A stretch of DNA of 34,127 nucleotides from Planctomycetota bacterium. GTDB taxonomy: Bacteria > Planctomycetota > UBA1135. Under the pieces are notes generated by a model, which ran no database searches, had not been told where the DNA came from, and was given only the letters and a program-made list of their open reading frames with translations. A program made the position numbers and the translations under genes. The stretch spans positions 1-34,127 of the forward strand of contig JASFYO010000070.1 of assembly GCA_045047305.1 (NCBI GenBank), given 5' to 3'. Below are positions 3,186 through 30,924 of this stretch, in pieces. How positions within the stretch are numbered: position 1 is the stretch's first letter; the number at the start of each line of letters is the position of its first letter.

Positions 3186-4559
3186 TTGAATCTGCGAACC
3201 CATCTCGCCGCACTCTGCGGCACCCTACTTCTTTTTTCTGTCCCAGCTGTAGCCCAGGAAACGGGCTATTCCCTTACCTACGTCATCCAAGCGGATGGCG
3301 CATGGGTGGGGCCGGGTGTTTATCTCGAACCTGCGTTTATTCAGATCTCCGACGGCCGTGTCGCCTGGATCAGTGAGAGCGATCAGCGGCGCGAGGGCAA
3401 AAACATGCTCGGGCGGTCCACTGGCAAGACCAAGATGATCACCGTGAAGGGTATTTTGGCCCCTGGCATGGTCGATGCTTGGAGTACCTTCACGCCGTCC
3501 GACTTCCTGCGGGAACGGAGCCCTGGCTCCACCCGCAACGTGGAAGATTCTTTGCCTTTACAGGTGTCTCTGGAGGATCCTCTACTTTATGCCACGGTGA
3601 TCGCTGCACGCCAAGCTGGAGTTTCTGCCACCTATATGGCTGGTGGTCAACGTGGATTACGGCGCGGTGTTGGTACTGCGGTGGAGTTCACAGCGCTTGA
3701 CCTGCCCTTAAAGGCTGGACATCAGGCTCTCGACTTTGCCGTTGGTTCCGCAGCAGTTCCTGGCTTTGAGCGCACATACCAGTCTGAGGAGTTGTGGGAC
3801 GCCTTTGAGGAAGCGCAATCCTGGCGCGCGTCCTGGGATGATTACGATGAGGATGTAGAAAAGTACGCCGAGAAGCTGGAGAAGTATCAGGAGAAACTCG
3901 AGAAGTACCTCACTGAGAAGAAGGAGTGGGATGAGAAGCAAGAGGCCAAGGGGTCGATGGCTGGCGAAGGCGATAGCGATGAAGCCCCCAAGGCTCCCAA
4001 ACGTCCGAAACCCCCTAAAAAGCCAGAGTCCAATGTCGCCCGCGATCTTTTGCTGGGTGCCATGGATGGAGCCACGCAAGTGCGGGTTGTGGCCGATCGC
4101 GTTGCCGATCTCCGCGCCCTCATCCGCCTCAAGCAGGAGTTCCACCTCGATCTTGTCGTGCTTGGCGGTTACGACGCCGATTTCCTCGCAGAAGAACTGG
4201 CCGCGGCTGAAATCCCAGTGATTCTGCCCGTCGTCCAGGATCATCACCTTGGTGCCAACCCTGAGCGTAGTTTTGCCACGCGCTATCTGGCTCTTCGCGA
4301 GGCCAAGGTCACAGTCGCGATTGCCAGTGGCGGGTCCGATGGCGCACAATTGATGCTCCCCTTACGCGCCGGCGAGATCATTGCCGCAGGTGGTTCCGAA
4401 GAAGATGTTTGGGCTTCCCTCACTACCGTACCGGCAAAGCTGCTTGGCCTTACCCATTACGGCACTCTCCATACCGGGATGAGCGCCACCATGATTTTGT
4501 TTGAAGGCTCCAGTCCCTTCGACGCCTCCGCGCCCTTCAAAGCCCACAAGCCGAAGTAG
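3186..4559 (+). CDS. Secreted amidohydrolase-fold protein 1 (metal ligands degenerate) with charged coiled-coil and Pro/Lys insert
   Basis: GGAG RBS before TTG; signal peptide ending AVA-Q; LAPGMVDAWS in place of PGxIDxHxH; C-terminal LTTVPAKLLGL..GTL..G.SA..ILFEGSSP. Confidence 0.8.
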   Translation: MNLRTHLAALCGTLLLFSVPAVAQETGYSLTYVIQADGAWVGPGVYLEPAFIQISDGRVAWISESDQRREGKNMLGRSTGKTKMITVKGILAPGMVDAWSTFTPSDFLRERSPGSTRNVEDSLPLQVSLEDPLLYATVIAARQAGVSATYMAGGQRGLRRGVGTAVEFTALDLPLKAGHQALDFAVGSAAVPGFERTYQSEELWDAFEEAQSWRASWDDYDEDVEKYAEKLEKYQEKLEKYLTEKKEWDEKQEAKGSMAGEGDSDEAPKAPKRPKPPKKPESNVARDLLLGAMDGATQVRVVADRVADLRALIRLKQEFHLDLVVLGGYDADFLAEELAAAEIPVILPVVQDHHLGANPERSFATRYLALREAKVTVAIASGGSDGAQLMLPLRAGEIIAAGGSEEDVWASLTTVPAKLLGLTHYGTLHTGMSATMILFEGSSPFDASAPFKAHKPK

Positions 4560-4561
4560 AG

Positions 4562-5641
4562 ATGCTCCTTTCCACCACCTTACTTTTGTCTGCGCTTGCT
4601 TCACCCATGGCGCAACAAGATGCGGTCATCTTGCAACCTGATGCCATCGTGGCTGCCGACGGAACCCTTCAAGAGGGTATGTCGGTGGTGATTCGTGATG
4701 GACGCATCGTGGAAGTCACCGCCAAGCCTTCGCTAGCCGGAACTTCGGTGCGTCTAGCTGGGGTCCTTGCGCCAGGCATGATCGACACTTTCAGTGGCCG
4801 CGGCGCTGATCTTTTGCTCACCGAGCAATCGCAAATTACCACGCCCGATTTGCTCGCGGCCGATGGTCTGCAGTTGTCCTCCCCAGTGTGGGAGAACCTG
4901 ATGGCGCGTGGCGTGACTGCCGTGCATATCACCCCCGACGCCACCAACGTGGTCGCTGGTTGGGGTGCGTTGGTTGCAACCGGCGGCTCCGAGCGCTTGA
5001 TTGAATCCAAGACCCTCATGATTGGTTCCTTGGTCCAATCGGCGATTAACGACCGTCGCGTGGGGCCAAGTTCCCTAGCTGGCGCAGTGGAGTTGTTGCA
5101 AGCGGCATTCGCCGATCCCCAAGCCAGGGCTTATCGCAGCAACATGTGGTTCTTTGTCGAGAGTGCTGAAAGTGCACGCGCTGTTGTGGCCCTGAACGCC
5201 GATATCAAGCAAAGCTCGAATCACTCCATCTTGATGGGGGATATTGGCACTTATGGCGGTTCCTTCGCAGGCCAATTGGTGGGCTTGCCCACCATGGGTT
5301 ATGGCGCACTTGCACGCCGCGCAGCGACTTGGAAATTGATGCACAAAGCCGGAACGCGTTTTGCATTCGGCACGCGCGCTGGAAACAGTGAATGGGATTC
5401 CTTGCGCACCTCCGCCATGGCCTTGAGTCGCTTCACCGGCGATGCCTCGGCCGCATGGGCCAGTGTCACCTCGAACCCTGCTGAGATGCTCGGTTTGAGT
5501 TCTGAGGTGGGCAGCATAAAAGTTGGAAATCGCGCCGATTTAGTGCTCTGGACCGGACATCCATTGGATTCCACCGCAACCGTGAGCGCAGTGCTCATCC
5601 ACGGTGAAACCGTTTTCCGGGCAACCGGGGAGGAGAACTAA
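4562..5641 (+). CDS. Secreted amidohydrolase-fold protein 2 (metal ligands degenerate)
   Basis: Signal peptide; VVIRDGRIVEV, LAPGMIDTFS, GVTAV, TSNPAEMLGL..VGSIKVGNRADLVLWTGHPLD. Confidence 0.85.
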   Translation: MLLSTTLLLSALASPMAQQDAVILQPDAIVAADGTLQEGMSVVIRDGRIVEVTAKPSLAGTSVRLAGVLAPGMIDTFSGRGADLLLTEQSQITTPDLLAADGLQLSSPVWENLMARGVTAVHITPDATNVVAGWGALVATGGSERLIESKTLMIGSLVQSAINDRRVGPSSLAGAVELLQAAFADPQARAYRSNMWFFVESAESARAVVALNADIKQSSNHSILMGDIGTYGGSFAGQLVGLPTMGYGALARRAATWKLMHKAGTRFAFGTRAGNSEWDSLRTSAMALSRFTGDASAAWASVTSNPAEMLGLSSEVGSIKVGNRADLVLWTGHPLDSTATVSAVLIHGETVFRATGEEN

Positions 5642-5643
5642 AC

Positions 5644-7095
5644 ATGATCCTGAACACCATTTTGAGTTTGTGCTTTGCGCTACCTCTGGCGCAACAAACC
5701 GAATCACTGAGCCTCTCCGTCGACCGCCTCCATGTAGGCAACGGTGAGGTCCTGGAAAATGCATTGGTTGTCCTGAATCATGGCAAAATCGTTTCCGTGG
5801 TGGCTGGCGGTTCCGCTGCAGGTGCCATCCACATTGACGGCGCTGAGCTTTCTCCAGGCTTAGTCGATGCTTTCTCCTTCATGGGAGTGGGTGGAGCCAC
5901 GATGGAAGAGTCGCGTGAATCGACTCCCTCGATTCATTTGGCAGATACGGTTTCTCTAGACGCACCTTCTTTTGCCTTTGCTTTAGAAGAAGGCGTGACT
6001 TCGGCTTATCTTTCGCCGGATAGCTTTAACGTGATTGGTGGTCTTGGAACCGTGGTGAAAACTGGGGGCGGCGTTGCTGCCAACCTATTCGCCGACGTCG
6101 GAAGTTCAGCCCGCGTGATTAAACGAGAAGGTGCCCTGAAGGTGACCCTCGGCAACGATGCTTCTAATGGCAACTTCACTCCACGTGGGCGCTCCACGCG
6201 CGATTTCCATGCGCGGCGTCCGAACACGCGGATGGGCACAGTGTGGGTGGTCCGCCGCGAGTTTTACCGCGCTAAGGCTTATCAAAAAGCCTTGAAGGAT
6301 GGTGCCAAGGTTTATGACAAGGATCTCGAGGTTCTAGTCAAGGTTCTAGAAGGCGAGATTCCTTTGCGTGTGCAGGCACGTCGCAGTCACGATGTGCAAA
6401 CCGCATTACGTTTGCAGGAAGAGTTTGGCTGGCCCAATCTCATCATTGAGGAAGCTACGGAAGGTCAAGAAGCGGCAGTAGAGCTTGCGGCTGCTGGAGT
6501 TTCGGTTGCAACCGGCCCTGCTTATGATGCCCTTAGTCGTGCCATCGCGCTTGGCCCCACGGTCGAAGAGCTGACCTTGCTCGCTGACCCTCCGGCAGTT
6601 TGTTGTGAAGATCTTCACGATGTCGAAGGCCTGCATAGTGGCGACGAAGACAACGGTGTGATTGCACTGAACCATCAAGCACTTAGCTTTTTGGTTGCAT
6701 TAGCTCCGCGTTATGGTGCAGCCAGTGGCCTCAACGGCGGGCGTTTCAGTGAAGGTGGTTCCGCAACGCCGGCGCTTCCTGCTCTTCTCTTTGATGCAGG
6801 TGTCTCGCTTGCGATGGGGTCTGCGGAAGCGCATGACCAGTCACTCACCGAAGCCAGTCTCATTTATCAGGCACGTAATGCTGTCCACTGGGGCATGCCC
6901 GAGGCGGATGCACTGCAAGCCATCACTTCTCGCGCCGCAGAACTCTGCGGCACCGCCGATCACCTCGGCAAAGTCGCAGTCGGTTTTGATGCCGACCTCG
7001 TGCTGTGGTCGGGCAATCCGCTCGATAGCAGCTCCCGTCCTCTTCTTGTGATTCTCGACGGCCGCATCGCGGTCGATAACCGTCCCCAGCAATAG
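5644..7095 (+). CDS. Secreted amidohydrolase-fold protein 3 (metal ligands degenerate)
   Basis: Signal peptide; LSPGLVDAFS, EGVTSAYLSP..NVIGG, ALKVTLG, PNTRMG, GFDADLVLWSGNPLD. Confidence 0.88.
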   Translation: MILNTILSLCFALPLAQQTESLSLSVDRLHVGNGEVLENALVVLNHGKIVSVVAGGSAAGAIHIDGAELSPGLVDAFSFMGVGGATMEESRESTPSIHLADTVSLDAPSFAFALEEGVTSAYLSPDSFNVIGGLGTVVKTGGGVAANLFADVGSSARVIKREGALKVTLGNDASNGNFTPRGRSTRDFHARRPNTRMGTVWVVRREFYRAKAYQKALKDGAKVYDKDLEVLVKVLEGEIPLRVQARRSHDVQTALRLQEEFGWPNLIIEEATEGQEAAVELAAAGVSVATGPAYDALSRAIALGPTVEELTLLADPPAVCCEDLHDVEGLHSGDEDNGVIALNHQALSFLVALAPRYGAASGLNGGRFSEGGSATPALPALLFDAGVSLAMGSAEAHDQSLTEASLIYQARNAVHWGMPEADALQAITSRAAELCGTADHLGKVAVGFDADLVLWSGNPLDSSSRPLLVILDGRIAVDNRPQQ

Positions 7096-7101
7096 TCAGG
7101 C

Positions 7102-8451
7102 ATGCGTAACGCAACCCTCTTTCTAGCTTCCGTCCTTCTTTCTGCACCTGCGTTCGCGCAAGGTGGTTCCATTGCTGTACGCGGTGGGAAAATCATGAAG
7201 GCCGACGGCTCGGTCATCGATGGCGGCACTATGGTCATCGAAAACGGTCGTATCTCCAGTCTCGGTGGTGCCGATCTCGAAGTCCCCTTCGATGTCATTC
7301 TCCACGAGTACCCCGATGCGGTCATCTTCCCCGGTTTCTACGAAGCGCACAGCTCTTCGGGTATGGACCGCGCTAACGAAAACGTTGCGGTTGCTCCTTT
7401 CCTGAATGTCAAAGATTCCATCGACCCAGTTTCCTTCTACTTTGAAGATGAACTGCGTGGCGGCACGGTTGCGATTGGCATCATGCCGGGTAACGCCACT
7501 GTCATCGGTGGGCACGGTCGTGTGGTTGCGCCAAGCGGAATGACCATCGAACAAATGACCTTGGATACAGCCATGGGCATGAAGATTGCAATTGGCCCCA
7601 AGCGCGGATGGAGTCGCAGCACCCAACTTGGTGAGCTGCGCGAAACATTTTCCAAATTGGATCGCGATTTGCGCAAACTCGGACTGAAATTGCAGGAAGC
7701 AGGCAAGCAGAAGGAAGACTTTGCCTCGGTGACGGAGGAGGAAGAGGAAGAGCTTTCGGATGGCGATGCTTGGGATAACGCGGGTGGTTTGCTGCGTTTC
7801 GGCGACGATTTCCCAGGCAAAGATTTGATTTCCGAAGAAGATCTCAATGATGGGCAGCGCGGATTAGTGAATATCCTTAATGGCGATGAGCGGTTGTGGA
7901 TTTGGGCACCAAGTGCAAGCGACGTAGTCACCGCACAAAACTGGCTAACGGAATACGGCATGCTCGATAATGCAGTGCTCGTGGTCACTTCGGCAGCTTG
8001 GAAGGCTTCAGCACAACTTGCTGAAATGGGCCGCCCCGTTGTGATCAGTGGCGACCTTTGGCATGTCGAACGGGATCCGGTGACCTACAAAGAGATCCGT
8101 ACTTTCGCACCGGCTAAGTTTGAGGAAGCAGGCATTGCCTTCGCCATCAGCTCGGTCGAAGGGCGCATGGGGCCAGACCGCTTGTCCTACCAAGCTGCCA
8201 TGTGCATCCGCGAAGGAGTTTCGCGTCAGGTCGCATTGGCAGCCGTCACCACCAACCCAGCTAAGTTCTGGGGCTTGGAAGATGACCTCGGCGATTTCAA
8301 GCAAGGCGCCGACGGAACCTTTGTCGTGTTCGACGGCGATCCACTCGCTATCAGCACTCATGTCCTGGAAGTTTGGATTCGCGGCGTGAAGAGTTACGAC
8401 CGCAGTGAAGACGCACGTCTGAAGCGCCTCGAGGAGGGTCGCATCAAGTGA
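7102..8451 (+). CDS. Secreted amidohydrolase-fold protein 4 (partial metal site)
   Basis: Signal peptide ending AFA-Q; IENGRI, IFPGFYEAHS (one His), PGNATVIGG, MKIAIG, TTNPAKFWGL, FDGDPL. Confidence 0.88.
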   Translation: MRNATLFLASVLLSAPAFAQGGSIAVRGGKIMKADGSVIDGGTMVIENGRISSLGGADLEVPFDVILHEYPDAVIFPGFYEAHSSSGMDRANENVAVAPFLNVKDSIDPVSFYFEDELRGGTVAIGIMPGNATVIGGHGRVVAPSGMTIEQMTLDTAMGMKIAIGPKRGWSRSTQLGELRETFSKLDRDLRKLGLKLQEAGKQKEDFASVTEEEEEELSDGDAWDNAGGLLRFGDDFPGKDLISEEDLNDGQRGLVNILNGDERLWIWAPSASDVVTAQNWLTEYGMLDNAVLVVTSAAWKASAQLAEMGRPVVISGDLWHVERDPVTYKEIRTFAPAKFEEAGIAFAISSVEGRMGPDRLSYQAAMCIREGVSRQVALAAVTTNPAKFWGLEDDLGDFKQGADGTFVVFDGDPLAISTHVLEVWIRGVKSYDRSEDARLKRLEEGRIK

Positions 8452-11336
8452 AGCTCAATACTCTCATCTTTTCCGCGATTGGAGGTGTCTGCCTGTTGGC
8501 GGCCGCGCTCCAAGGCGATGATCGCCAAGAGCCGGCGGCAGCAAATGCGCTGGTTTTAAATGGTGAAGGCCCTGCAAAAGCGTATCACGCTGCGGTGATT
8601 CACACTGCGGGTGCCGCTGGCGTTATCAAAGACGGCTACCTTGTGGTGCAAGATGGCAAGGTCGCGGGCGTGGTAGCGTCGGCAGATGATTTGCCACCCA
8701 TGCTAGCGATGGTCGAACTTGGCCAGGCACACATCATTCCCGGTTTGGTTGCAGCAGATACCACCGTCACTGGGGTTTCTGGGCAAGCCGATCGGACTAT
8801 GGCGGCGCACAACTTAGCGTCGGATTCCTTTGATCCTTGGATGGATACGACCAAGGTCCTAGAGCGCGGCATTACTACCTACTACCTGTCGCCCGATCGT
8901 TCACGTTTGATTGGCGGACGCGGCGCTGTGGTGAAAGCTGCGGGCAAAAACTCCATGTTGCAAACGCACGGCGATTTGCGCATCAACCTCACCAGTGCTG
9001 CGTGGAATCCTCCAGATTACTTCCGGCCGCCGATTCCACCAACGGCAGAGAACCCAATCCTTCCAGCGCAAGCACAAGCGCCAAACTCACGCCCCGGTGC
9101 GTTGTTGGCCTTGCGCCAGACTTATGCAGCGGCTCTTGCGGGTGCAGATACTGACCCCAACCTGATTGGTTTGCAAGAGTACTTAAGCTCCGATGCTGTG
9201 TTGCGTTTGGTCGTCAACACCGCCGATGAGGCGGAGGCTGCGCTCGCTCTGGCCAAGGAATGGGGCCGACGTCCTGTTCTGGCTGGCCTAAGCCAAGCGA
9301 ATGCGGCACAAATGAAGGCTGCGTTGGAGCAGCAGAGGGCAACCTTGTTGTTTGAAGTTCCGCTGTTTATCACCATGCCGGAACTCGACGCCAATTGGCA
9401 GTTCCCAGAGGCGGATTTGCTCGCTGAGATGAGTCCATTGGCACCAGTCGCACTGGAGGCAGGCCCTTATGGGCGTTGGACTTGGTTGCTCGAAGCTGCT
9501 GCTTCCGCCACCAGTTATGGCTTAAGTGAGAGCGATGCGCTTCGCGGAATCACCACCGTGCCGGCCGACATTCTCGGTGTTGGTCAGCGCGTCGGCCGCC
9601 TGGAGAAAGGCTTTGATGCCGACTTTGTTGTGCTCGATGGAGGCCCGCTGGATGCGGCTGCCAGCGTGCAAAAGGTTTACGTGGATGGCAGTAAAGTTTG
9701 GAGCCGCAAAGGAGTGAAAGCTCTGGTTAGCGATGCCGTTGTCATTCGCGCTGGAACTTTATGGACTGGCGATGGCGCGCCAATTGAAGGCGGGGTAGAA
9801 GTCCTGCTTGAAGATGGGCTCATCGTGGCAGCCGGGCGAACGGTGCCGCATCCTGCTGGTGCACGCATTGTGGATGCTGGAGCCGATGCTCACATCACAC
9901 CTGGCTTCATTGACGCCCGTGGATTTATTGGCACCAATGGAGCGCGGCGGATTAACGATCGTGTCGATATCGGACGTCTTGCTGACGGCTCCTTTTTCTC
10001 CGACCGTTGGCGTCCTGTAGCGCAATCTGGCATCACCTCGGTGGTGATGGGCCCGCGCAATTTGTCAACCACCGGCACTCGCGCTGCGGTAGTCAAGACC
10101 GCCGCAGGGGCTGAGTCCGGTTCGCTAGAAGATCGCTTTGTCGTATTCTTCGATGCGCGTTCTTCCGACCACGCAGCCAGCCGCAAGGCCTTGGCCGGTC
10201 AACTTAAGAAAGGGAAAGCTTATTTTGATAAGTGGGAAGCCTTCCGCAAAGAACGCGCGGAGTGGGAGGTCGAGAATGGAAAGAAGACTTCCGATGCACG
10301 TGCGGAAAAGGAAAAGGATCTGCGCATTCGGCTCGCTCAAGGGTCTGCCCCTAAGGTGGAAGAAGTTGTAGTGGAAGAAGTGGAAGAAGTGGAGGTTGTC
10401 GAAGAGGAAGCCAAGCCTGTGGACCCTGTTAACGGGATGTGGGAAGGCCTCTTAGAGCATGAGATGCTTGGGGACGAGGGCATCGAAATCCAAGCCCGCT
10501 TACATCATGAAGGTAAACAGTTAACCGGTATATTTGGAACGCCGGATGCGCCAGACGATACCTTGGAGCTGGAAGGCTCTTTCGAAAACAATGCCATTCA
10601 CTTTGAGTTCCCAACCCAGGTAGGGAATCTCATGATTGACGGCAGCATCGATGCCCCAGATTCCATGTCGGTCAAGATCGAGCTCGCAGGTTTCGGCTCG
10701 GCTGAATTTGTCATGGCTCGCACTGAGGTCGAGGAAGAAGGTGCGGCTCCGATTGCCAAAAAGAAGACGAAGACAGACGATGGTCCACAAGCTCCAGACA
10801 TGAATTGGGGGTTGGAAGGCTCACGCGCAATGTTTGAAGGACGCGCCCGTGCCGTGGTTGCTGCTTCGCGTCGTGACGAAATCGAGAGCGTGTTGGCTCT
10901 CTTTGATGAATACCAACTTCCGGTGCAACTCATGTATGCCGAAGAAGCACTCGACATGGCCGACGAACTCCGAGCACGTGGAGTCGGCATTGTGGTTTCA
11001 CCGAATGTTACCAGCCGACGAGAAAACGTGGATTATGTGGCAGCAGCGGAACTGCATGCCGCTGGAATCCCGATTGCCTTCCAGTCGGACCGTACCCAAG
11101 GCGCACGTTTCTTACCGCAGCTCCTGACCATGGCAACTCGTTACGGTTTGGGTGCAGAGCAAGCACTTGCTGGCCTCACTTCTTCCACCGCAGACATGCT
11201 CGGCATTGCCGATCGTGTCGGCCGAGTGAAAGCTGGACTCGATGGCGACATCGTTATTTTTCAAGGGCCTCCATTTGATCTGCGATCACGGGTGACCCAC
11301 GTCTTTGTCAACGGCCGCGAGGTCCCACAACCGTGA
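8448..11336 (+). CDS. Secreted double amidohydrolase-fold protein 5 (two degenerate domains; extra beta-rich domain inserted in the second)
   Basis: Two copies of the fold: IIPGLVAADT...GFDADFVVLDGGPLD and ITPGFIDARG...GLDGDIVIFQGPPFD. GTGA overlap with the previous stop. Confidence 0.88.
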   Translation: MKLNTLIFSAIGGVCLLAAALQGDDRQEPAAANALVLNGEGPAKAYHAAVIHTAGAAGVIKDGYLVVQDGKVAGVVASADDLPPMLAMVELGQAHIIPGLVAADTTVTGVSGQADRTMAAHNLASDSFDPWMDTTKVLERGITTYYLSPDRSRLIGGRGAVVKAAGKNSMLQTHGDLRINLTSAAWNPPDYFRPPIPPTAENPILPAQAQAPNSRPGALLALRQTYAAALAGADTDPNLIGLQEYLSSDAVLRLVVNTADEAEAALALAKEWGRRPVLAGLSQANAAQMKAALEQQRATLLFEVPLFITMPELDANWQFPEADLLAEMSPLAPVALEAGPYGRWTWLLEAAASATSYGLSESDALRGITTVPADILGVGQRVGRLEKGFDADFVVLDGGPLDAAASVQKVYVDGSKVWSRKGVKALVSDAVVIRAGTLWTGDGAPIEGGVEVLLEDGLIVAAGRTVPHPAGARIVDAGADAHITPGFIDARGFIGTNGARRINDRVDIGRLADGSFFSDRWRPVAQSGITSVVMGPRNLSTTGTRAAVVKTAAGAESGSLEDRFVVFFDARSSDHAASRKALAGQLKKGKAYFDKWEAFRKERAEWEVENGKKTSDARAEKEKDLRIRLAQGSAPKVEEVVVEEVEEVEVVEEEAKPVDPVNGMWEGLLEHEMLGDEGIEIQARLHHEGKQLTGIFGTPDAPDDTLELEGSFENNAIHFEFPTQVGNLMIDGSIDAPDSMSVKIELAGFGSAEFVMARTEVEEEGAAPIAKKKTKTDDGPQAPDMNWGLEGSRAMFEGRARAVVAASRRDEIESVLALFDEYQLPVQLMYAEEALDMADELRARGVGIVVSPNVTSRRENVDYVAAAELHAAGIPIAFQSDRTQGARFLPQLLTMATRYGLGAEQALAGLTSSTADMLGIADRVGRVKAGLDGDIVIFQGPPFDLRSRVTHVFVNGREVPQP

Positions 11337-12538
11337 TTGTTAGCGCACTACTTACCTTTTCTCTGACCGCAATGGCGCAAGTGCCTGTGGCGGAAGATGT
11401 CATTATTTTGCGCGCCGCCAAGGTTTACACCGCGGGGGAGCAAGGCATGATTAACAATGGCTTGGTCGTCATGCAAGGCGAGAAATTGCTGTGGGTTGGC
11501 CCCGAATCTGACCTGCAGGTCGATGCGCGTATCAGGGTGCAGGACCTCGGTGATGTTTGGTTAGTTCCAGGACTTATCGAACCGCACAATCACGTTGCTG
11601 GTTCCTTGCGCGACTTGAATGACACCGTGTTCCTGACTAATCCGGAACTTCATACCTACGAAGTCCTGGAACCGCAAAACGAGTTTCTCAAGGATGCGGT
11701 CGCTGGTGGTGTTACCACGGCACTGTTCATTCCGGGCTCCGGTTCTAACATGGGTGGCTTTGGCATGCTGGTGAAAACTTCTGGCAAAACCCCGGATGAA
11801 ATGGTGGTGCGCAGCCCCGGATCGTTGAAGATTGCACAAGCGGGTAACCCGGAACGTTATTCCTGGGGTGTGCGTCGTGCGATGATGAACTGGAATACGC
11901 GCGACACCTTGGAGAAGGGGTTGGCCTGGGCCGAAGCTTATGAGGCAGGCGAAGCCGAATTCGATCCTCGCTACCAATATTTCGTCGGGCTGCGCAACGG
12001 CACCATTCCAGTCAGTGTGCACACCCAGATCTATCAAGTGGTGATGCAAACGCTCACCATGCAAGTGCGGGACCTCGGCTTGAAGTCCTTCATCGATCAC
12101 GGCACTTTTGATGGCTACAAAAATGCCCCGCTGGCAGCAGAGCTGGGTGTCCCGGTCATGAACGGCCCGCGTCAGTTTTGGTTTGACCGCTCCACTTCCA
12201 TGATCATGGGGTGTGCTGCTGGTTGGGCTAGCGAGGAGGGCATCATCCTTGGCTACAACACCGATTCTCCGGTGCTGCCTCAAGAGGAGCTTCCCTTTCA
12301 AGCCGCAATGGGTGTACGTCTCGGCGCTGGAACCAATGAGTCCGCGCTCAAAGGCATGACCGCACACGCGGCTACGGCTTTGTTGATGGAAGATATCGCC
12401 GGCCGCTTAGAGAAAGGTCTCGATGCCGACGTCGTGGTGTGGACCGGGGATCCCGTCGACCCACGTAGTTCCGTTCTCAAAGTTTGGGTGCGCGGCGAGA
12501 AAGTTTACGACATCGATGAGGAGAAGCGCCGCTTCTAA
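11333..12538 (+). CDS. Secreted amidohydrolase family protein 6 (complete binuclear metal site)
   Basis: PGLIEPHNH (HxH), SLKIAQ (Lys), VSVHTQ, FIDHGT, YNTDSP; GLDADVVVWTGDP. Confidence 0.92.
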   Translation: MIVSALLTFSLTAMAQVPVAEDVIILRAAKVYTAGEQGMINNGLVVMQGEKLLWVGPESDLQVDARIRVQDLGDVWLVPGLIEPHNHVAGSLRDLNDTVFLTNPELHTYEVLEPQNEFLKDAVAGGVTTALFIPGSGSNMGGFGMLVKTSGKTPDEMVVRSPGSLKIAQAGNPERYSWGVRRAMMNWNTRDTLEKGLAWAEAYEAGEAEFDPRYQYFVGLRNGTIPVSVHTQIYQVVMQTLTMQVRDLGLKSFIDHGTFDGYKNAPLAAELGVPVMNGPRQFWFDRSTSMIMGCAAGWASEEGIILGYNTDSPVLPQEELPFQAAMGVRLGAGTNESALKGMTAHAATALLMEDIAGRLEKGLDADVVVWTGDPVDPRSSVLKVWVRGEKVYDIDEEKRRF

Positions 12539-13734
12539 TGCTCGGATTGCTATTGCTTCTACCGCTGAGTCAGGCGGCTGCCCAACCGGAACCCGGCATG
12601 GTTTTGGATGTGGGCGTAGCCCTGACTATGGAGGAGCGTCGGGTGGTGCACAATGCACGCATCCTGATTGGAAGTGATGGACGCATTCAAGAGGTGGGGC
12701 GACAAGCAGATATCGCGCGACCTGATGGTTGGGAATACCTGAACTATCCCAATTCGTTCGCTTGGCCAGGCGGGATTGATTTGCATTCCCATACGCATAC
12801 TGGTGGCTGGGAAGACATCAACGACATGGTGCATCCAGACAATCCAGAGCTCCGCACCCTGGATACCATCGTGCCGAATAATATCCTGCATCGCATGGGC
12901 CGTGCTGGGGGAGTCACTTTGGTGAATGCGATTCCCGGATCGGGCACCAATATTTCCGGCGCTGGTACTTTGGTAAAACTCAAGAACAGCGTTTCGGTGG
13001 AAGATGTGGTCTTCCGCTACCCCGGTTCGGTGAAAGTGGCGCAAGGCTACAACCCAGAACGCAGCGATGACCTCGGCTCCACCCGTATGGGCATGTGGTG
13101 GATGTTGCGCTGGTACCTAGACCGCGCCAAAGAAGTGGCCGCTGCCGACACTCTGGCGGAAAATCCAGATGTCGCCAGTCTCGCCGGTGTTTTTCAACAG
13201 CGTTATCCCTTTTTGGTCCACACTGCTGGCGCCCGCGATACTTATGGCACGGTGCGGATGTTTCAACTTGAAGCAGGAGTTCCAGTGATTGTGAGTCACG
13301 GTTCCTTCAACGGATTTATGGTCGGTGAGGCCATTGCCAAGGTTCATGCTTCGCTCAACTTAGGCCCGCGTAACTTCGATTACACGGTGAGCCGTAATAG
13401 TCAATTCCGTGGACTCGTGGAGGCTTTCGAAAGCGCAGGTAATACCGATATCTCGGTTCAAACCGACGCCGGAGTCATCCCACAAGAAGAGTTTATTTAC
13501 CAGGCCACTTTGGCCGAACGCCTGGGCTGTTCCACTTGGTTAGCCCTGGAATCCATCAACGTGAACCCCGCTCGACAGATTCTGGTAGAAGACCAGGTCG
13601 GTCGTCTCTTGCCCGGACTACAGGCCGACATTGTGGTCAGTACTGGGCAGCCGTTGGACCCGCGCGCGGCGGTGCAGCTCGTCATCATTGAAGGCGAAGT
13701 TGCATACGACCAAAGTACGGGCCAGCTTTACTGA
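12538..13734 (+). CDS. Secreted amidohydrolase family protein 7 (complete binuclear metal site)
   Basis: PGGIDLHSH, SVKVAQ, FLVHTA, IVSHGS, VQTDAG; TAATG overlap with the previous stop; close paralogue of protein 6. Confidence 0.92.
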   Translation: MLGLLLLLPLSQAAAQPEPGMVLDVGVALTMEERRVVHNARILIGSDGRIQEVGRQADIARPDGWEYLNYPNSFAWPGGIDLHSHTHTGGWEDINDMVHPDNPELRTLDTIVPNNILHRMGRAGGVTLVNAIPGSGTNISGAGTLVKLKNSVSVEDVVFRYPGSVKVAQGYNPERSDDLGSTRMGMWWMLRWYLDRAKEVAAADTLAENPDVASLAGVFQQRYPFLVHTAGARDTYGTVRMFQLEAGVPVIVSHGSFNGFMVGEAIAKVHASLNLGPRNFDYTVSRNSQFRGLVEAFESAGNTDISVQTDAGVIPQEEFIYQATLAERLGCSTWLALESINVNPARQILVEDQVGRLLPGLQADIVVSTGQPLDPRAAVQLVIIEGEVAYDQSTGQLY

Positions 13735-13751: not shown

Positions 13752-15101
13752 ATGCTTGCATCCTTAATCCTAACTTTTGCGCTACCCGCTGCGGTGCCGC
13801 AAGAAACGCCGCGTGACCCAGTGGGCCGCGCAGTCATTTATCGTTTCGATACTGTCGAGACCATGGATGGCGAATCTCTTTCCAATGTCACCATGTTGGT
13901 TCGTGATGGAATCATTGAACGCATGGGGCAAGCGGTAGTCATACCCGAGCATGCAGAGGTTCACGATTACCGTGGCAGTGGCAAAGTTGCGATGCCGCCT
14001 TTCGCCTTAAGCCACGCTAACTTTTTGGTTAGCGATCGTCGTGGTAATGGGCGCAATACGCGTTACACCGCGGTTGATTCCATGTGGTTAGACGCAGACT
14101 GGGAGCAAGATTTGCTTGAAGAGGGCGTGCTCTTGGTAGGGGTGGACCCACCTGGGCGCGGATTGCCCGGACGCACATCGGTGCTGTTGGTTGATGGGCA
14201 AACAGGAGTGCCGCATGCCCTTGTTTCGGATCTTCATCTCAAGGTGATGGTTTCCACTTCATCGACCGCCAAGCGTTTGGTGCGCGATGGATTCAAGGCC
14301 GCCGATAAGGCAATCAAAGACGAAGACAAAGCCCGCGCGGAATGGAAGAAGGCGCGTGAAGAGTGGGAAGCTAAGCAGAAAGAGGAAGCCGAGGCTAAGG
14401 AAAAGGAGAAGGCTGACAAGGACGACAAAGGTGAAGCTGCAACCGCTGCTCAAGATGAGGGCGATGATAAGAAGGAAGACAAGGGGCCTCCCGATGAATT
14501 TGAGATTCCGAAAATCGATCCCAATGTAGAGCCATTGGTGGAGTGGATTCGTCAGGAGCGGGTCGGTCAGGTTTGGCTAGGCACGGCTTCGGATTGGCTA
14601 CATTGGCAGGACTTGTTACGTGAGCGCGAGTTGTCTTACGAGATCGTGCTGCGGCATGGCACCACGCAAAATTTGTTTGAAGTGGCCGACGCCATCGCCA
14701 GCACCGAGTTGCGTGTCGATGTTCCGGCACGGATTAGCTTTTTGCCTTACACTCGCACCCGCGCCAACCTTCCTGCCGATCTCGTCGCAGCGGGCGTGAC
14801 TAAGCTCATCCTTTCGCCGTCGAGTGATTCTTTGAGTGGTTTGCGCAACTATCGTTTAGCCGTTTCCCAAGTAGTTGCTGAAGGCTTGGATCGCGATGTC
14901 GCATTGCGCGGCATGACGGTTGAACCTGCGCTTTCGATGGGGCAAGAAGAATTGCTTGGTGCACTCAAAGTTGGCGCACCCGCCACCTTTGTCATCTGGA
15001 ATGGCGACCCACTCGATCCAATGAGTGAAGCCGAGTTTGTGCTTTCGGAAGGAGAAGTGGTTTATGACCGCGCCAAAGCCGAAGCGGAGGATCAGTCATG
15101 A
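13752..15101 (+). CDS. Secreted amidohydrolase-fold protein 8 (degenerate) with long charged insert
   Basis: Signal peptide; LVRDGII, AMPPFALSHAN, MTVEPALSMG..LGALKVGAPATFVIWNGDPLD. Confidence 0.82.
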   Translation: MLASLILTFALPAAVPQETPRDPVGRAVIYRFDTVETMDGESLSNVTMLVRDGIIERMGQAVVIPEHAEVHDYRGSGKVAMPPFALSHANFLVSDRRGNGRNTRYTAVDSMWLDADWEQDLLEEGVLLVGVDPPGRGLPGRTSVLLVDGQTGVPHALVSDLHLKVMVSTSSTAKRLVRDGFKAADKAIKDEDKARAEWKKAREEWEAKQKEEAEAKEKEKADKDDKGEAATAAQDEGDDKKEDKGPPDEFEIPKIDPNVEPLVEWIRQERVGQVWLGTASDWLHWQDLLRERELSYEIVLRHGTTQNLFEVADAIASTELRVDVPARISFLPYTRTRANLPADLVAAGVTKLILSPSSDSLSGLRNYRLAVSQVVAEGLDRDVALRGMTVEPALSMGQEELLGALKVGAPATFVIWNGDPLDPMSEAEFVLSEGEVVYDRAKAEAEDQS

Positions 15102-16624
15102 AATCCATGTGGAAGCTAGCCATTCTTTCTCTTTGCACTTTGGGTGCACAAGGAACACTCTTGGCCGCAGCGCCGATGGCGCAGGAGCCTCCTCCTGAAG
15201 TGGTCGATACGCCACCGCCACCTCCGCCCGAAATTGTGGAAGAGCCGCAGGAGCCTACAGAAGAAGTCATCGAAGAGGTGGTGGAAGATTCCACTGAGGA
15301 TGCGGTCGAAGAGGAAGCGGTTGAGGAGGAAATAGTGGAAGAGGAGCCGGTGGACCCGGAGCTCTTCATCGATCCCGACAGCCCGTACCTTTACATCCAT
15401 GGTGCCGACATTCACACCGTGACCAACGGTGTGATTCATAAGGGTGATCTCTTGTGCAAAGATGGCCGCGTACTCAAGTTAGGCGAAAGTCTGCGTAAGC
15501 CGCATGGTGCGCGCCGTATCGACGCCACTGGTATGCAGATTTATCCCGGGCTGATTGCTGTGGATAGTTCTGGCGTGGTAAGTGGTCGCGGTCTTTCAAT
15601 CCGCGATTCCTATGACCCGTATGCACTCAACATTGACCTCGGACTTTCCGGTGGGCTTACTTTGGTTCAGTCTGGCGGTGCATTAGCCAAGTTGAAGCAC
15701 GGAACTCTAGATGGCATCCTTTTGGGGGAAACCCATTGGGTCAATATGAGTTACTCGACCACCTCTCCAAGCGGACGTCGTAAGTTGCGCGAAGAATTTG
15801 GAAAGGTTCGTGATTACTTGCGTGAGCAACGTCGTTGGGCGTTGGATAAGGAGCTTGGCGAAGATGTAGGTGAGGAGCCACAAGCGAAAGGATTTAAAGC
15901 AGATTACTTAGCCTTGTTGAAAGGCGAAGCTGTCGCGCGTTTCAGTGCGAACTCGCTGAAGGATTTACTTGCCACCTGTGACCTGCTGGAGGAATACCCC
16001 ATGCAGTCGGTCATCATTGGAGGTCGTGAAGCATGGGCCTGCGCCGGACGTCTTGGTCGTGTCGGTGCACAACTGGTGATTACCCCACGCGCAAAAAGTT
16101 GGGCCGATGACAGCCTTAACCGCCCGAGTGGTTGGTCGATTGAGAATGCGCGCATCCTGTGGGAGCATGGCGTGCAGTTTGCCATCCTTCCGGCGCAACG
16201 TTTCATCTCCACCGGTGGTATTGCAGGGCGTGACTTACTTACCTTGCCGATGGAAGCAGCCTTCGCCATTCGGGGCGGCTTGCCGCAAAACGTCGCGCTG
16301 CGTGCGATTACTTTGGATGCGGCTAAACTTCTTGGCGTCGACCACCGTTTGGGATCCATCGAAATCGGAAAAGACGCAGATTTTATTCTGTGCGATGGCG
16401 ACGTCTTCCACTACCGCACTTTTGTGCAATGGGCTGTGGTTGATGGTGCTGTGGTGTACGACAAGATGAAGGCACCTTACTTTGCTCACATTCGCCCGCG
16501 GGAAGCGACTTCCTTGGATGAGGTCATCGAGGAAATCAAAGATGCAGTCGATGCTGAAGCCGAAATCATCGAAGAATCTTCGTCGGAAGTTGCTTCTGAC
16601 ATCGACGCGCCGGAAGAAGATTAA
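15098..16624 (+). CDS. Secreted amidohydrolase-fold protein 9 (degenerate) with Pro/Glu-rich N-terminal extension
   Basis: Signal peptide, PPPPPP/EE tract, IHTVTNGVI, IDATGMQIYPGLIAVDS, ITLDAAKLLGVDHRLGSIEIGKDADF; ATGA overlap. Confidence 0.88.
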   Translation: MKSMWKLAILSLCTLGAQGTLLAAAPMAQEPPPEVVDTPPPPPPEIVEEPQEPTEEVIEEVVEDSTEDAVEEEAVEEEIVEEEPVDPELFIDPDSPYLYIHGADIHTVTNGVIHKGDLLCKDGRVLKLGESLRKPHGARRIDATGMQIYPGLIAVDSSGVVSGRGLSIRDSYDPYALNIDLGLSGGLTLVQSGGALAKLKHGTLDGILLGETHWVNMSYSTTSPSGRRKLREEFGKVRDYLREQRRWALDKELGEDVGEEPQAKGFKADYLALLKGEAVARFSANSLKDLLATCDLLEEYPMQSVIIGGREAWACAGRLGRVGAQLVITPRAKSWADDSLNRPSGWSIENARILWEHGVQFAILPAQRFISTGGIAGRDLLTLPMEAAFAIRGGLPQNVALRAITLDAAKLLGVDHRLGSIEIGKDADFILCDGDVFHYRTFVQWAVVDGAVVYDKMKAPYFAHIRPREATSLDEVIEEIKDAVDAEAEIIEESSSEVASDIDAPEED

Positions 16625-16692: not shown

Positions 16693-17187
16693 GTGGCAGA
16701 TTTCTTGACTAATCCAGTTCTTGCCCCCGGGAACCGCGCCCCCGCATTTACCTTGCCCACCGATGGTGGAGGCCGGGTGCGTTTGACCGAACATCGTGGA
16801 CGTTGGGTGGTGCTTTTTTTCCTGCCTCCAGCACTGACACCTAGTTGCTGTTTACAGGCGAAGGAATTTCAAAGTACGGCAGACAAGTTTTGGGATTTAG
16901 GAGCGGTTGTAGTCGGAGTCAGTCCCAGCGAGCATCACCGTCATCTCGAGTTCCGCCAAAAGAACAATCTCGATTTTCCTCTATTGCACGACCGCGACGC
17001 CAAACTAGCGATTCGTTATGGTGTCTATCGGGAACGCAAAACCAGCGTCCGCAACTATTTCGGAATCGTGCGCACTACAGTCTTAATTGATCCGGCCGGT
17101 AAGGTTGCCCATCTTTGGGATAACCTGCGGGTGAAGGGGCATGTCGGACGTGTTTATTCTCGCTTAGAGGAGGAGCTCCAAGGTTAA
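16693..17187 (+). CDS. bcp: Peroxiredoxin, BCP/PrxQ subfamily
   Basis: APAFTLP, WVVLFFLPPALTPSC (PxxxTxxC), VVGVSP, LDFPLLHD, RTTVLIDPAG, VKGH. Confidence 0.85.
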   Translation: MADFLTNPVLAPGNRAPAFTLPTDGGGRVRLTEHRGRWVVLFFLPPALTPSCCLQAKEFQSTADKFWDLGAVVVGVSPSEHHRHLEFRQKNNLDFPLLHDRDAKLAIRYGVYRERKTSVRNYFGIVRTTVLIDPAGKVAHLWDNLRVKGHVGRVYSRLEEELQG

Positions 17188-17189
17188 TT

Positions 17190-18218
17190 ATGCCTGACGG
17201 TATCCGCCCCCTTCTTCATCGGATCTCAGGATCGGTCAGCGGCGGTCGCATCCATAATCTCAGCGCCGAAGCCGCAGAGAAATTGTTCGGTATGCTGTTG
17301 GCCGGCGAGGGAACCGATGCGCAAATCGCCATGTTCCTTGCCGCCATGAGGGTGAAGGGAACGACTTCGGAAGAGCTGGTTGGGGCAGCACGAGCCGGTC
17401 GTGCACGCATCGTGTTCCCAAAACTGCCGCCGAATTGTGTTGTTGTCGCCACCAGTCGTCATGGCAAGCATCACAGCCCACCGATGGTTCTTGCCGCCGC
17501 CGCTGCTGCCGCATCCGCCGGGGTTCCAATCTTCTTGCAGTCTGCGCCAAGCCTGATTGGTGGTGGCGTGACTCCTGGAGATGTCTGGCAAAGAATGATT
17601 GGGCCTTTGCTGGGGGATGCGCATCACGCCGAGGAGCACCTACAAGAATTCGGTCTTGCTTGTTGGCAACCCACCCTTGCTGATGATGGCTGGCAGCGTA
17701 TGCAAAGAATCGAGGACGAAACGGGTATCCGTGGAATTCCAGATGTAGTGAGCAAACTCATGTTGCCCGAACACTGCGCCGTCTTGGCCGCCGCGCTTCC
17801 AGGGCCGGTACTCGGCATGGCTGGCGATGCCTTTGAAAGCCTCGGCCATACCCAATGCATGGTGGTGCAGGGAGTGGAAGGCTCGGTAGATCCCTCGGTG
17901 GTGGAGACTACCCGTGGGTTGCGTTTGCTGAATGGCGTGAAGGCTCCGGTGCGCCTCCGCCCTGGTGATTTCGCTTTATTCGAGGAAAGCGAGCCGAGTG
18001 GCATGCATGAAGATCCAATTGAGGCTGCGGTTATGGCTACACAGCAAGCATTGCTCACCTCTACAGGACCTGAAGCTTGTGCGGCCTCGCTTGGTGCTGC
18101 CTTGCTCATTAGTTTGGCCAACCCAAACGACGACTTGGCTTCCTGTATGGGACTTGCAGTCGACGCCGTCGAGTCTGGGGCAGCCTCCCATTTGCTGCAG
18201 AAGTTAAAGAACAGCTGA
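17190..18218 (+). CDS. Anthranilate phosphoribosyltransferase-like (glycosyl transferase family 3, YbiB-like) protein
   Basis: N-terminal LSAEAA..LF..LLAGEGTDAQIAMFLAAMRVKGTTSEEL typical of the TrpD/YbiB N-domain; VQGVEGS; lacks the TrpD GTGGD motif. Confidence 0.75.
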   Translation: MPDGIRPLLHRISGSVSGGRIHNLSAEAAEKLFGMLLAGEGTDAQIAMFLAAMRVKGTTSEELVGAARAGRARIVFPKLPPNCVVVATSRHGKHHSPPMVLAAAAAAASAGVPIFLQSAPSLIGGGVTPGDVWQRMIGPLLGDAHHAEEHLQEFGLACWQPTLADDGWQRMQRIEDETGIRGIPDVVSKLMLPEHCAVLAAALPGPVLGMAGDAFESLGHTQCMVVQGVEGSVDPSVVETTRGLRLLNGVKAPVRLRPGDFALFEESEPSGMHEDPIEAAVMATQQALLTSTGPEACAASLGAALLISLANPNDDLASCMGLAVDAVESGAASHLLQKLKNS

Positions 18219-18305: not shown

Positions 18306-19226
18306 ATGCGTAAGCTTCTTTTTCTTCCGGTTTTAGCCCTTGCCGCCTGCGGTCACGCAGATGTCAGGGTGGAGGAGGGGCAAGCCGTCGCCGAAATCAC
18401 GGTGACCAGTAATTTTCCAGCTCCTGTTGCCTTAGAGGTCGAGTCGCTGCCTCGCTTGCTCAAAATAAGCCCGTCGATTTACTCTGGGGCTCAACCCCAC
18501 ACTGCCGCCTCCTTTGCAGCGCTCAGGGAGTTAGGTATTAAGACCATTGTTTCGGTCGACGCCGCGCCTCCCAATCTCGAGGCCGCTGGCAAGGAAGGCC
18601 TGCGCTATCTGCACGTACCGATTGGTTACGACGGCATTTCTCAAGCAGCAGGCGACTCTTATTTCCGCCTGATGGGGGAAGTGGATTTGCCGGTTTACTT
18701 TCATTGCCATCATGGTCGGCAACGTGGGCCTGCCGCCGCCGCGATTGCTTTACGAGCTTCCACCCAATGCGATGCAGCCACGGCCTTGGCTGTCCTAGAA
18801 GCAGCTGGTACCAGTCATAAATATGAAGGCCTTTGGCGCGATGTGGAAGCATGGATGGCGCCGCGTCCGGATAAACAACTTCCGGAGCTAGTGTCCTTGC
18901 AGAAGTTGAATCCATTCGTGGTGAAGATGGCCGAGATTGATCGCACTTGGGACCGCATCAAGCAAATCCGCGAGCAGGATTGGAAATCGGTTTCGTTCAT
19001 TCCTGAAACTCAACTTCTACTGGAGCAACTCGAAGAGTGTGCTGGCCACATTCCAGCGGAGCACATCCAGGACAAAAAACTACATCGGGGGTTGGAGGAT
19101 GTAGTTCGATTTGCCGAAAGCTTTCACCGTGCCGCCGAGGCGTTAGATAAAGACTTGCTTGAAGAAGGCTACCGGGATCTCCGCGCGAGCTGTAACGATT
19201 GCCACGCGGATTACCGGAATCATTAA
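18306..19226 (+). CDS. Lipoprotein with protein-tyrosine-phosphatase-like/DUF442 domain (CX5R) fused to a C-terminal cytochrome c'-like domain
   Basis: Lipobox LALAA-C; IYSGAQP, LGIKTIVSVD, FHCHHGRQRG; helical C-terminal half ending SCNDCHADYR (CxxCH). Confidence 0.82.
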   Translation: MRKLLFLPVLALAACGHADVRVEEGQAVAEITVTSNFPAPVALEVESLPRLLKISPSIYSGAQPHTAASFAALRELGIKTIVSVDAAPPNLEAAGKEGLRYLHVPIGYDGISQAAGDSYFRLMGEVDLPVYFHCHHGRQRGPAAAAIALRASTQCDAATALAVLEAAGTSHKYEGLWRDVEAWMAPRPDKQLPELVSLQKLNPFVVKMAEIDRTWDRIKQIREQDWKSVSFIPETQLLLEQLEECAGHIPAEHIQDKKLHRGLEDVVRFAESFHRAAEALDKDLLEEGYRDLRASCNDCHADYRNH

Positions 19227-20193: not shown

Positions 20194-21189
20194 GTGCTCC
20201 TTTTTGTGACATCACCCTCCCTCCCCTCTGACTCCTATTCGCGACGTAAGTTCCTGCAAGGGATGGCTTCTGTGACCGGGGTTGCCGTCGTAAGTGGCCA
20301 GCAGACTGGACTTTCGGCATTACACGCCGCTGTCTTCCCTGCAGCTCCTGCCTACACCCTATGGGCGGTCGAAGCGATTCAAGTGCAGGAGGTTTTCCCC
20401 AACGGTTCTGCAGTAGACTTTTTCCGTTATCAACCCTTGCAAGGTTCAGCCACTCGCGGAAATCTGCCGTATTTCGAAGCCACGGAAGGCGCAATCATCA
20501 TCGTTGGAGTCAGGAACTCCCTTTCTATTGCGATTCGCCCGGAAATTGTAGGGGTAGCGGTTGGCCCGCTGATCGCTCCTGGTCAACAGGATTGGTTCCG
20601 CTTCATCATGCCAGCAGCTGGTAGTTACCAACTGAGCCAAGCGGAATACCGCGAAGTCTCTGGTCCACTCGGTCTGGCTGGGGTCATGGTTTCGCGGCCT
20701 TCAAGCGGTGCGCAAGAGCTTTGGAATGGGGGACCTTCCTTTGACCGGGAGTATGTCCTGCATTACCAAGATTCCGATGAGCGTTGGAATCAGGCAGCAG
20801 CGTTAGGTCACTTGCCGAACCTTGGGCTGTACGAGCCGAACTACTTCACGATTAACGGATTGGCCTATCCAAATACTTCGGCCGACCCAGATTCTCACGT
20901 TGCTTGCCTGGTCGGTGAGCGAGTTTTGATCCGACTCTCGAACTCTGGGCGTATACGTCAGAGCATTCACTTCCATGGCTATCATGTGGATATTGCGGCA
21001 CAGAACAACGTGCCAAACATGATTCTTCCGCCTAAAGACACGGTAGAAATTGCGGCTGGTGGAACTACGGATCTAATCTTGACGGTGAATCAAGCAGGCA
21101 TTTTCCCGGTGCACTCACACTCTTTAACCGCAGTGACCTCCAACGGGATCTACCCATACGGTCAACGGACCTTCATTGAAGCTACTTAG
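20194..21189 (+). CDS. Tat-exported two-cupredoxin-domain multicopper oxidase-like protein A (HxH pairs only in domain 2, no type-1 Cys)
   Basis: SRRKFL Tat motif; FTINGLAYP, VLIRLSN, SIHFHG, KDTVEI..G, FPVHSH. True start may be GTG 20206. Confidence 0.85.
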   Translation: MLLFVTSPSLPSDSYSRRKFLQGMASVTGVAVVSGQQTGLSALHAAVFPAAPAYTLWAVEAIQVQEVFPNGSAVDFFRYQPLQGSATRGNLPYFEATEGAIIIVGVRNSLSIAIRPEIVGVAVGPLIAPGQQDWFRFIMPAAGSYQLSQAEYREVSGPLGLAGVMVSRPSSGAQELWNGGPSFDREYVLHYQDSDERWNQAAALGHLPNLGLYEPNYFTINGLAYPNTSADPDSHVACLVGERVLIRLSNSGRIRQSIHFHGYHVDIAAQNNVPNMILPPKDTVEIAAGGTTDLILTVNQAGIFPVHSHSLTAVTSNGIYPYGQRTFIEAT

Positions 21190-21198
21190 AGATTGATT

Positions 21199-30867: not shown

Positions 30868-30924
30868 AAATAGCCTATGTATTTGTGATATTCTTGTTTG
30901 TTTCCACGTTCCTACCCCCAAACG

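Follow-up and report, generated by a model that had tools for sequence, protein, structure and literature searches.

The DNA stretch analysed here (the window) comprises 34,127 nucleotides (nt) of a Planctomycetota bacterium (GTDB lineage UBA1135; assembly GCA_045047305.1, contig JASFYO010000070.1) and carries an array of nine amidohydrolase-type genes, all oriented in one direction between positions 3186 and 16624 (Table 1). The genes are separated by intergenic gaps of 2, 2, 6, -4, -4, -1, 17 and -4 nt. Gene 5 encodes two amidohydrolase domains (5a and 5b), so that ten domains arise from nine genes. Pfam amidohydrolase families match eight of the nine proteins, while gene 1, which has no Pfam match, aligns to the catalytic class (genes 6 and 7) by profile comparison with a probability of 100. 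All nine proteins have a hydrophobic N-terminal stretch and none has a later membrane-like segment; these N-termini suggest that the array proteins would be exported by the general secretory (Sec) pathway.

Table 1. Genes and domain features of the amidohydrolase array in the window (aa, amino acids).
Feature	Position	Strand	Description
Gene 1	3186..4559	+	Degenerate domain; signal-peptide-like N-terminus; charged helical insert
Gene 2	4562..5641	+	Degenerate in the window; 5-6 ligands in orthologues of a few other lineages
Gene 3	5644..7095	+	Degenerate; bridging-Lys position with Lys/Arg and strand-6 His position with Glu/Asp; pocket conserved above the rest
Gene 4	7102..8451	+	Degenerate; first His and Lys mostly kept; sister clade of the catalytic class
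Gene 5	8448..11336	+	Two fused degenerate domains, 5a and 5b
Domain 5b insert	10170..10730	+	Charged helix of 56 residues, acidic disordered linker and nine-strand beta domain, all as predicted by AlphaFold
Gene 6	11333..12538	+	401 aa; full-ligand amidohydrolase, 3OOQ-like
Gene 7	12538..13734	+	398 aa; second full-ligand amidohydrolase; 33% identity to gene 6
Gene 8	13752..15101	+	Degenerate; three ligands here; charged helical insert
Gene 9	15098..16624	+	Degenerate; none of 99 orthologues has more than one ligand

A preliminary description of the window had assigned a full metal-ligand set to proteins 6 and 7. Both open reading frames (ORFs) were found exactly where it had placed them, and alignment to 3OOQ, an amidohydrolase of Thermotoga maritima, identified six ligands in each. 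Specifically, His85, His87, Lys166, His230, His256 and Asp311 of gene 6 match residue for residue the His-x-His, Lys, His, His and Asp of 3OOQ, and gene 7 likewise holds all six ligands of the binuclear site. The model of gene 6 (predicted local distance difference test 93, predicted template modelling score (pTM) 0.92) has a barrel and beta-sandwich fold, and PF01979/PF07969 were matched for both genes. By fold and ligand set, genes 6 and 7 belong to the binuclear type of the amidohydrolase superfamily, with metal binding and activity being predicted. The closest relative by profile is 3OOQ (E-value = 1.7e-77, against 1.2e-21 for the next), which is also the closest fold to the gene 6 model (Z 44.6, root mean square deviation 2.6 Å over 360 residues; next Z 25.2). 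The next fold matches, the Cc2672 carboxypeptidase (3MTW), the putative prolidase 2P9B and imidazolonepropionase, are tied at Z of about 25 and thus far weaker, and the curated cut-offs are far above the scores obtained: gene 6 was rejected as an Xaa-Pro dipeptidase (NF051886, 58.1 bits vs. a cut-off of 500) and as a HutI (TIGR01224, 45.8 bits vs. a cut-off of 298). The array proteins are assigned to a 3OOQ-like subfamily, as their sequence and modelled structure match it far above other amidohydrolases.

Concerning the other eight domains of the window, the preliminary description had read them as devoid of the metal site. His-x-His is indeed missing from all eight, but some of the later ligands survive. 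The first His and the Lys are retained in both domain 4 and domain 8, the latter also having the strand-6 His; domain 3 has only the Lys and domain 5b only the Asp, so that domains 1-5b, 8 and 9 hold zero to three exact ligands each. The charged inserts of genes 1, 4 and 8 occupy the same place as the insert of domain 5b. An Atlas search with the 5b insert gave no usable match, and one with gene 4 yielded clusters that are mostly from Planctomycetota and carry no functional names. The gene 5 ORFs are shorter in other classes (loci L080, L099 and L102), which suggests that the beta domain of the insert is missing there.

For comparison, 152 loci were picked by gene-9-type matches; after removal of seven duplicates and addition of the window, 146 remained, which are related and were chosen for carrying a member, and counts among them are not independent frequencies. 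The complete pattern of six ligand-poor domains, n catalytic genes and two ligand-poor domains, a definition that includes the catalytic genes, was found in 99 of the 146 loci. Another 30 have a catalytic gene and a different domain count (mostly contig ends, split hits and frameshifts), and in the remaining 17, mostly truncated, the stretch compared contains no catalytic-slot gene; L040 and L112 among these are other loci. In the 99 complete loci six ligands were present in 164 of 165 catalytic-slot proteins, the exception (L012) being disrupted in its N-terminal part. Allowing a tolerance of one residue, the highest ligand number was one in slot 9, two in slots 1 and 5a, three in slots 3 and 5b, and four in slots 4 (one protein) and 8 (seven proteins); none of the proteins of these seven slots exceeds four. 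The ligand pattern is not due to chance, since it is repeated slot by slot in the complete loci. Slot 2 differs, with six ligands in 2/99 and five in 3/99 by multiple alignment, and by pairwise alignment six in L075 and five in L033 and L080. As some lineages still hold five or six ligands, their alignment indicates that slot 2 lost its metal site late and more than once. The slot 2 orthologues of L075, L033, L074 and L080 keep four to six ligands and may represent a second catalytic position of an ancestral particle.

The order of six, n and two domains spans the class of the window plus at least two other classes of Planctomycetota. All 151 genomes of the class to which the window belongs were matched by a gene 9 profile at E ≤ 1e-40, and 146 of them at E < 1e-90, the latter extending to class assemblies of 1.8-2.4 Mb; in the rest of the phylum 55/236 genomes were matched at E ≤ 1e-70, and in a second class 52/59 genomes were matched. 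Since nearly all genomes of one planctomycete class carry it, small ones included, the array probably marks an envelope or nutrition function. Its relatives are Planctomycetota by record title. Among the best 120 of 431 database matches of gene 9 the named organisms are all planctomycetes, including the isolate Planctomycetes bacterium Poly30 (P0110), which carries an orthologue. Gene 9 orthologues bear database names such as 'imidazolonepropionase', which are implausible given that the domain lacks the ligands. A second copy, a partial array, was seen in genome G395 (L140). No RNA data were listed among sequencing runs. Additionally, a record titled Myxococcota (L051) contains an array whose gene 4 is 68% identical to that of the window and which has the same neighbours, possibly owing to mislabelling or mis-binning.

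Selection on the degenerate genes was estimated as the ratio of nonsynonymous to synonymous substitution rates (dN/dS) by the Nei-Gojobori method. Between the window and two loci of the same genus, dN/dS was 0.054-0.103 for the degenerate genes, close to the 0.054-0.071 of genes 6 and 7. Three further close pairs gave 0.03-0.22 for the degenerate genes, which is also the range of the five close pairs overall; in the pair L078/L079, five of eight genes had reached saturation. These values bear out the preliminary description, which had noted intact frames and had named relaxed selection as a sign that would speak against pseudoenzymes: the frames are intact, array order and ligand pattern recur in 99 loci and selection is not relaxed. 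By dN/dS, ligand loss and fixed order, the eight domains behave as maintained pseudoenzymes. Decay of eight duplicated genes could account for the lost catalytic residues and for the frameshift-like interruption of gene 8 seen in L007 and L103 (which may be assembly errors), but the intact frames, a dN/dS of about 0.05-0.10 and maintenance across classes make it highly improbable, and the dN/dS values refute it. A tree of 168 sequences, from 17 of the loci and six outside domains, resolved eight of nine slots as clean or near-clean clades across classes with support of 0.94-1.0, slot 2 being complete but weakly supported (0.58). One slot 1 sequence strayed to 5b, and slot 4 stands beside the catalytic class. 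Because each slot forms its own clade across classes, the tree identifies the slots as ancient fixed roles and not recent duplicates.

Some of the degenerate domains could still be enzymes. Under this explanation, which we regard as unlikely, domains 3, 4, 8 and sometimes 2 would possess altered or single-metal sites and serve a multi-step hydrolytic pathway or multienzyme particle. In its favour, slot 4 orthologues have the first His in 58/74 and the Lys in 59/74, slot 3 has Lys/Arg at the bridging-Lys position in 62/72 and Glu/Asp at the strand-6 His position in 64/72, and slot 2 holds six ligands in L075; counts at the strand-6 and strand-8 positions are approximate, since the mapping has a low posterior (0.1-0.7) in several slots. 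The pocket, taken as the positions equivalent to 20 conserved polar or aromatic barrel residues of the catalytic class, is, in a descriptive comparison without significance test, conserved above the domain as a whole in slots 3 (0.54 vs. 0.41), 4 (0.61 vs. 0.49), 5a and 9. Conversely, it is no better conserved than background in slots 1 (0.41/0.37), 2 (0.41/0.39), 5b (0.34/0.40) and 8 (0.38/0.39), the strand-6 His of domain 8 is found in 16/79 orthologues, and no constant alternative His/Asp/Glu set was found by alignment across lineages in any degenerate slot. The slot-specific conserved residues, together with the signal-peptide-like start of each protein, would also fit a set of unconnected periplasmic proteins for binding or sensing, each dedicated to a different amide or peptide and sharing no complex. 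Such a repertoire should vary in number and order, but the eight slots are fixed across classes and joined in fusions of up to three domains, half of the pockets are unconserved and no transporter or signalling gene is among the most frequent neighbours; we therefore find this improbable.

The preliminary description had further proposed a two-enzyme core, and this does not hold as a rule. A single catalytic gene is the commonest state (56/99 complete loci), two being present in 28/99, three in 7/99 and four in 8/99. When the catalytic proteins are classed by the window protein closest to them, a gene-6-like protein is the sole one in 51 loci and a gene-7-like protein in five, while 26 loci have a pair of 6 followed by 7; either subtype can thus stand alone. 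In L011, of the window's own family, gene 7 was lost cleanly with no gap left. Since the number of catalytic genes runs from one to four and L011 has lost gene 7, the two-enzyme core is the state of the window's lineage and not a general feature. In-frame fusions among the complete loci comprise 5a+5b (99/99), 1+2 (10/99) and 8+9 (1/99, L080). Seven of the ten 1+2 fusions, all of one family, also take in slot 3, and the fusion linkers inspected are short and lack a signal peptide. An apparent 3+4 fusion in L141 was discarded; its junction coincides with a stretch of N, and L145 of the same genus is unfused. Fixed order, overlapping stop and start codons and fusions point to a complex.

A further indication comes from the same genome, where the only other tblastn matches lie on contig C3 (approximately 153760-158020, minus strand). 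They correspond to a 1419-aa protein in which a 3OOQ-like domain with His-x-His, Lys, His and Asp is fused to a ligand-poor one, which the tree places with slot 9, and L112 holds a counterpart of 1493 aa. This type of protein is a minimal enzyme-pseudoenzyme fusion, perhaps wider spread than the operon. It speaks against the degenerate domains forming an envelope scaffold, cage or filament of their own, with the catalytic protein as a separate homo-oligomer that is co-regulated or loosely docked. That arrangement would explain why every fusion within the array joins degenerate domains and why the number of catalytic genes varies freely from one to four around a fixed degenerate set. We nevertheless assign it a low probability, as the catalytic genes lie inside the array, with stop/start overlaps on both sides of gene 6, and occur in 99/99 complete loci, although they are part of the definition of complete.

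Given the observed fold, ligand pattern, fixed order, slot orthology, purifying selection, degenerate-slot fusions and one to four catalytic genes, we propose that the array probably encodes an exported hetero-oligomer with dedicated degenerate positions, in which binuclear-metal hydrolysis would take place at the gene 6/7 subunits only. The nine products, with ten 3OOQ-type domains, would be exported and then assemble into one hetero-oligomer. The 3OOQ entry contains ten chains and is listed under dihedral symmetry in a docking preprint (10.64898/2026.08.06.736029), which would correspond to D5; the gene 5 model has a template modelling score of 0.8 to the 3OOQ chain. By analogy with 3OOQ, the array products may form a ten-subunit dihedral assembly of about 4000 residues. 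Its ancestor would have been a 3OOQ-like homodecamer, which was duplicated, each degenerate paralogue taking a fixed position. Eight degenerate positions and two catalytic places would then add up to ten, the latter being filled twice by a single gene, by genes 6 and 7 in the window, or by interchangeable isoforms in loci with three or four genes. Two-metal binding and the hydrolysis of amide or peptide bonds would be confined to the gene 6/7 products. Subunits 1, 2, 5b and 8 would mainly act as scaffold, a binding pocket may persist in 3 and 4, and capture or gating of the substrate by the long charged helices is a guess. That ligand loss abolishes catalysis follows from established amidohydrolase chemistry and from BwBSH1, another amidohydrolase, in which alanine substitution of any one of six ligands is reported to have abolished activity (PMC13081902). 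This metallo bile-salt hydrolase was rejected as a relative; as described there, it has 945 aa and 3ICJ and 3MTW as closest structures, and it is alike in ligand logic only. As candidate chemistry we suggest, at somewhat less than an even chance, a housekeeping reaction of the periplasm by which peptides or N-acyl amino acids would lose acyl groups or terminal residues.

Several observations weigh against the proposed hetero-oligomer. In one distant pair of high divergence, dN/dS was 0.24-0.49 for the degenerate genes, compared with 0.22 for the catalytic one. In the array no fusion takes in a catalytic gene (0/99, 0/99, 0/66); this would be expected if the catalytic protein is used twice per particle, but the independent fusion events besides 5a+5b number only about four, and the missing catalytic fusions are therefore weak evidence. 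Reading the gene order simply as five pairs conflicts with the 2+3 fusion, and the gene 5 model (pTM 0.47) leaves the packing of 5a against 5b unfixed. The domain total is ten in 28/99 loci, nine in 56, eleven in seven and twelve in eight; a constant number of ten domains is ruled out, and the decamer count therefore needs the added assumption of two catalytic places. L083 has the last three genes only and L105 gene 9 alone in 19.9 kb. Finally, no substrate is pointed to, and no transporter or regulator is among the most frequent neighbours listed. A complex prediction for the single catalytic protein of L011 with domain 8 scored 0.00 with controls that did not fold, and it counts neither for nor against the hetero-oligomer.

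A bolder version of the hetero-oligomer strikes us as possible but rather doubtful. It would be a fully asymmetric bacterial hetero-decamer, a D5 ring-pair with ten dedicated paralogue positions, eight of them occupied by degenerate subunits and two by exchangeable catalytic ones. Subunit diversification of this degree, comparable to that of CCT or the proteasome, would have become fixed early in the history of Planctomycetota, and the long charged helices and the beta domain would serve as periplasmic substrate-capture arms. If so, 3OOQ (one gene), the two-domain fusion of the C3 type and a slot 2 that is still armed would be living intermediates of its building.

Concerning the neighbouring genes, a peroxiredoxin gene (AhpC/BCP-like) and a TrpD-like gene of glycosyltransferase family 3 follow the array at 16693-18218, the TrpD-like gene being downstream in 26/71 loci. 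These two and two upstream genes, which from their sequence appear to be acetyl-CoA synthetase-like and LpxA-like, are among the most frequent neighbours listed, which are lineage-limited. The ORF at 18306-19226, present downstream in 14 loci, encodes a lipoprotein-like product in which a tyrosine/dual-specificity phosphatase-like domain is joined to a heme motif resembling that of cytochrome c' at the C-terminus (the Pfam matches are weak). Two adjoining multicopper-oxidase-like ORFs are located at 20194-22101, the first with a twin-arginine translocation (Tat)-like signal, and may constitute a split or two-subunit small laccase. A putative secreted galactose/glyoxal oxidase-like protein is encoded at 30898-32592.

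The array is likely a conserved enzyme-pseudoenzyme case with unusually many types of degenerate subunit, and the operon appears to be undescribed; no description was found in a literature search with supplements outside its scope and subscription journals mostly absent. The bacterial enzyme-pseudoenzyme complexes found in that search have one kind of degenerate partner each, and eight position-fixed kinds would be an extreme case. The array would thereby offer a prokaryotic test system for the change from homo- to hetero-oligomer, by adaptive division of labour or by neutral entrenchment, with states of one, two, nine and twelve domains on hand for comparison, and a pull-down is feasible in the Poly30 isolate. 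Among known systems, 3OOQ shares the six ligands and is the best match in sequence and fold, but it is a homo-oligomer of one gene with no function in its PDB title, in contrast to nine genes and ten distinct domains, eight of them degenerate, with export-like N-termini. Proteasome alpha/beta rings, CCT/TRiC and CRMP tetramers passed from homo-oligomers to position-specific paralogues, many of them non-catalytic, and exchangeable catalytic subunits occur. Proteasome and CCT have unrelated folds and reached their diversity in eukaryotes, and CRMPs are without a catalytic core, so that the likeness is an analogy only. The metformin hydrolase MetCaCb consists of adjacent paralogues, derived from a homo-oligomer, with a metal-free pseudoenzyme that is required and a ratio of two active to four inactive subunits (PMC11271267). 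Like the array, in which it is kept by selection, it has a co-encoded paralogue without metal ligands; unlike the array, it has a ureohydrolase fold and, as described there, one kind of degenerate subunit instead of the eight of the predicted array complex. In Pseudomonas aspartate transcarbamoylase, an inactive amidohydrolase-fold chain, the pseudo-dihydroorotase, is needed as a scaffold; it supports an unrelated enzyme and is of a single degenerate type, unlike the array (PMC7053772). By analogy, the array resembles MetCaCb, the pseudo-dihydroorotase and the proteasome/CCT in its presumed way of working and is a member of none of them.

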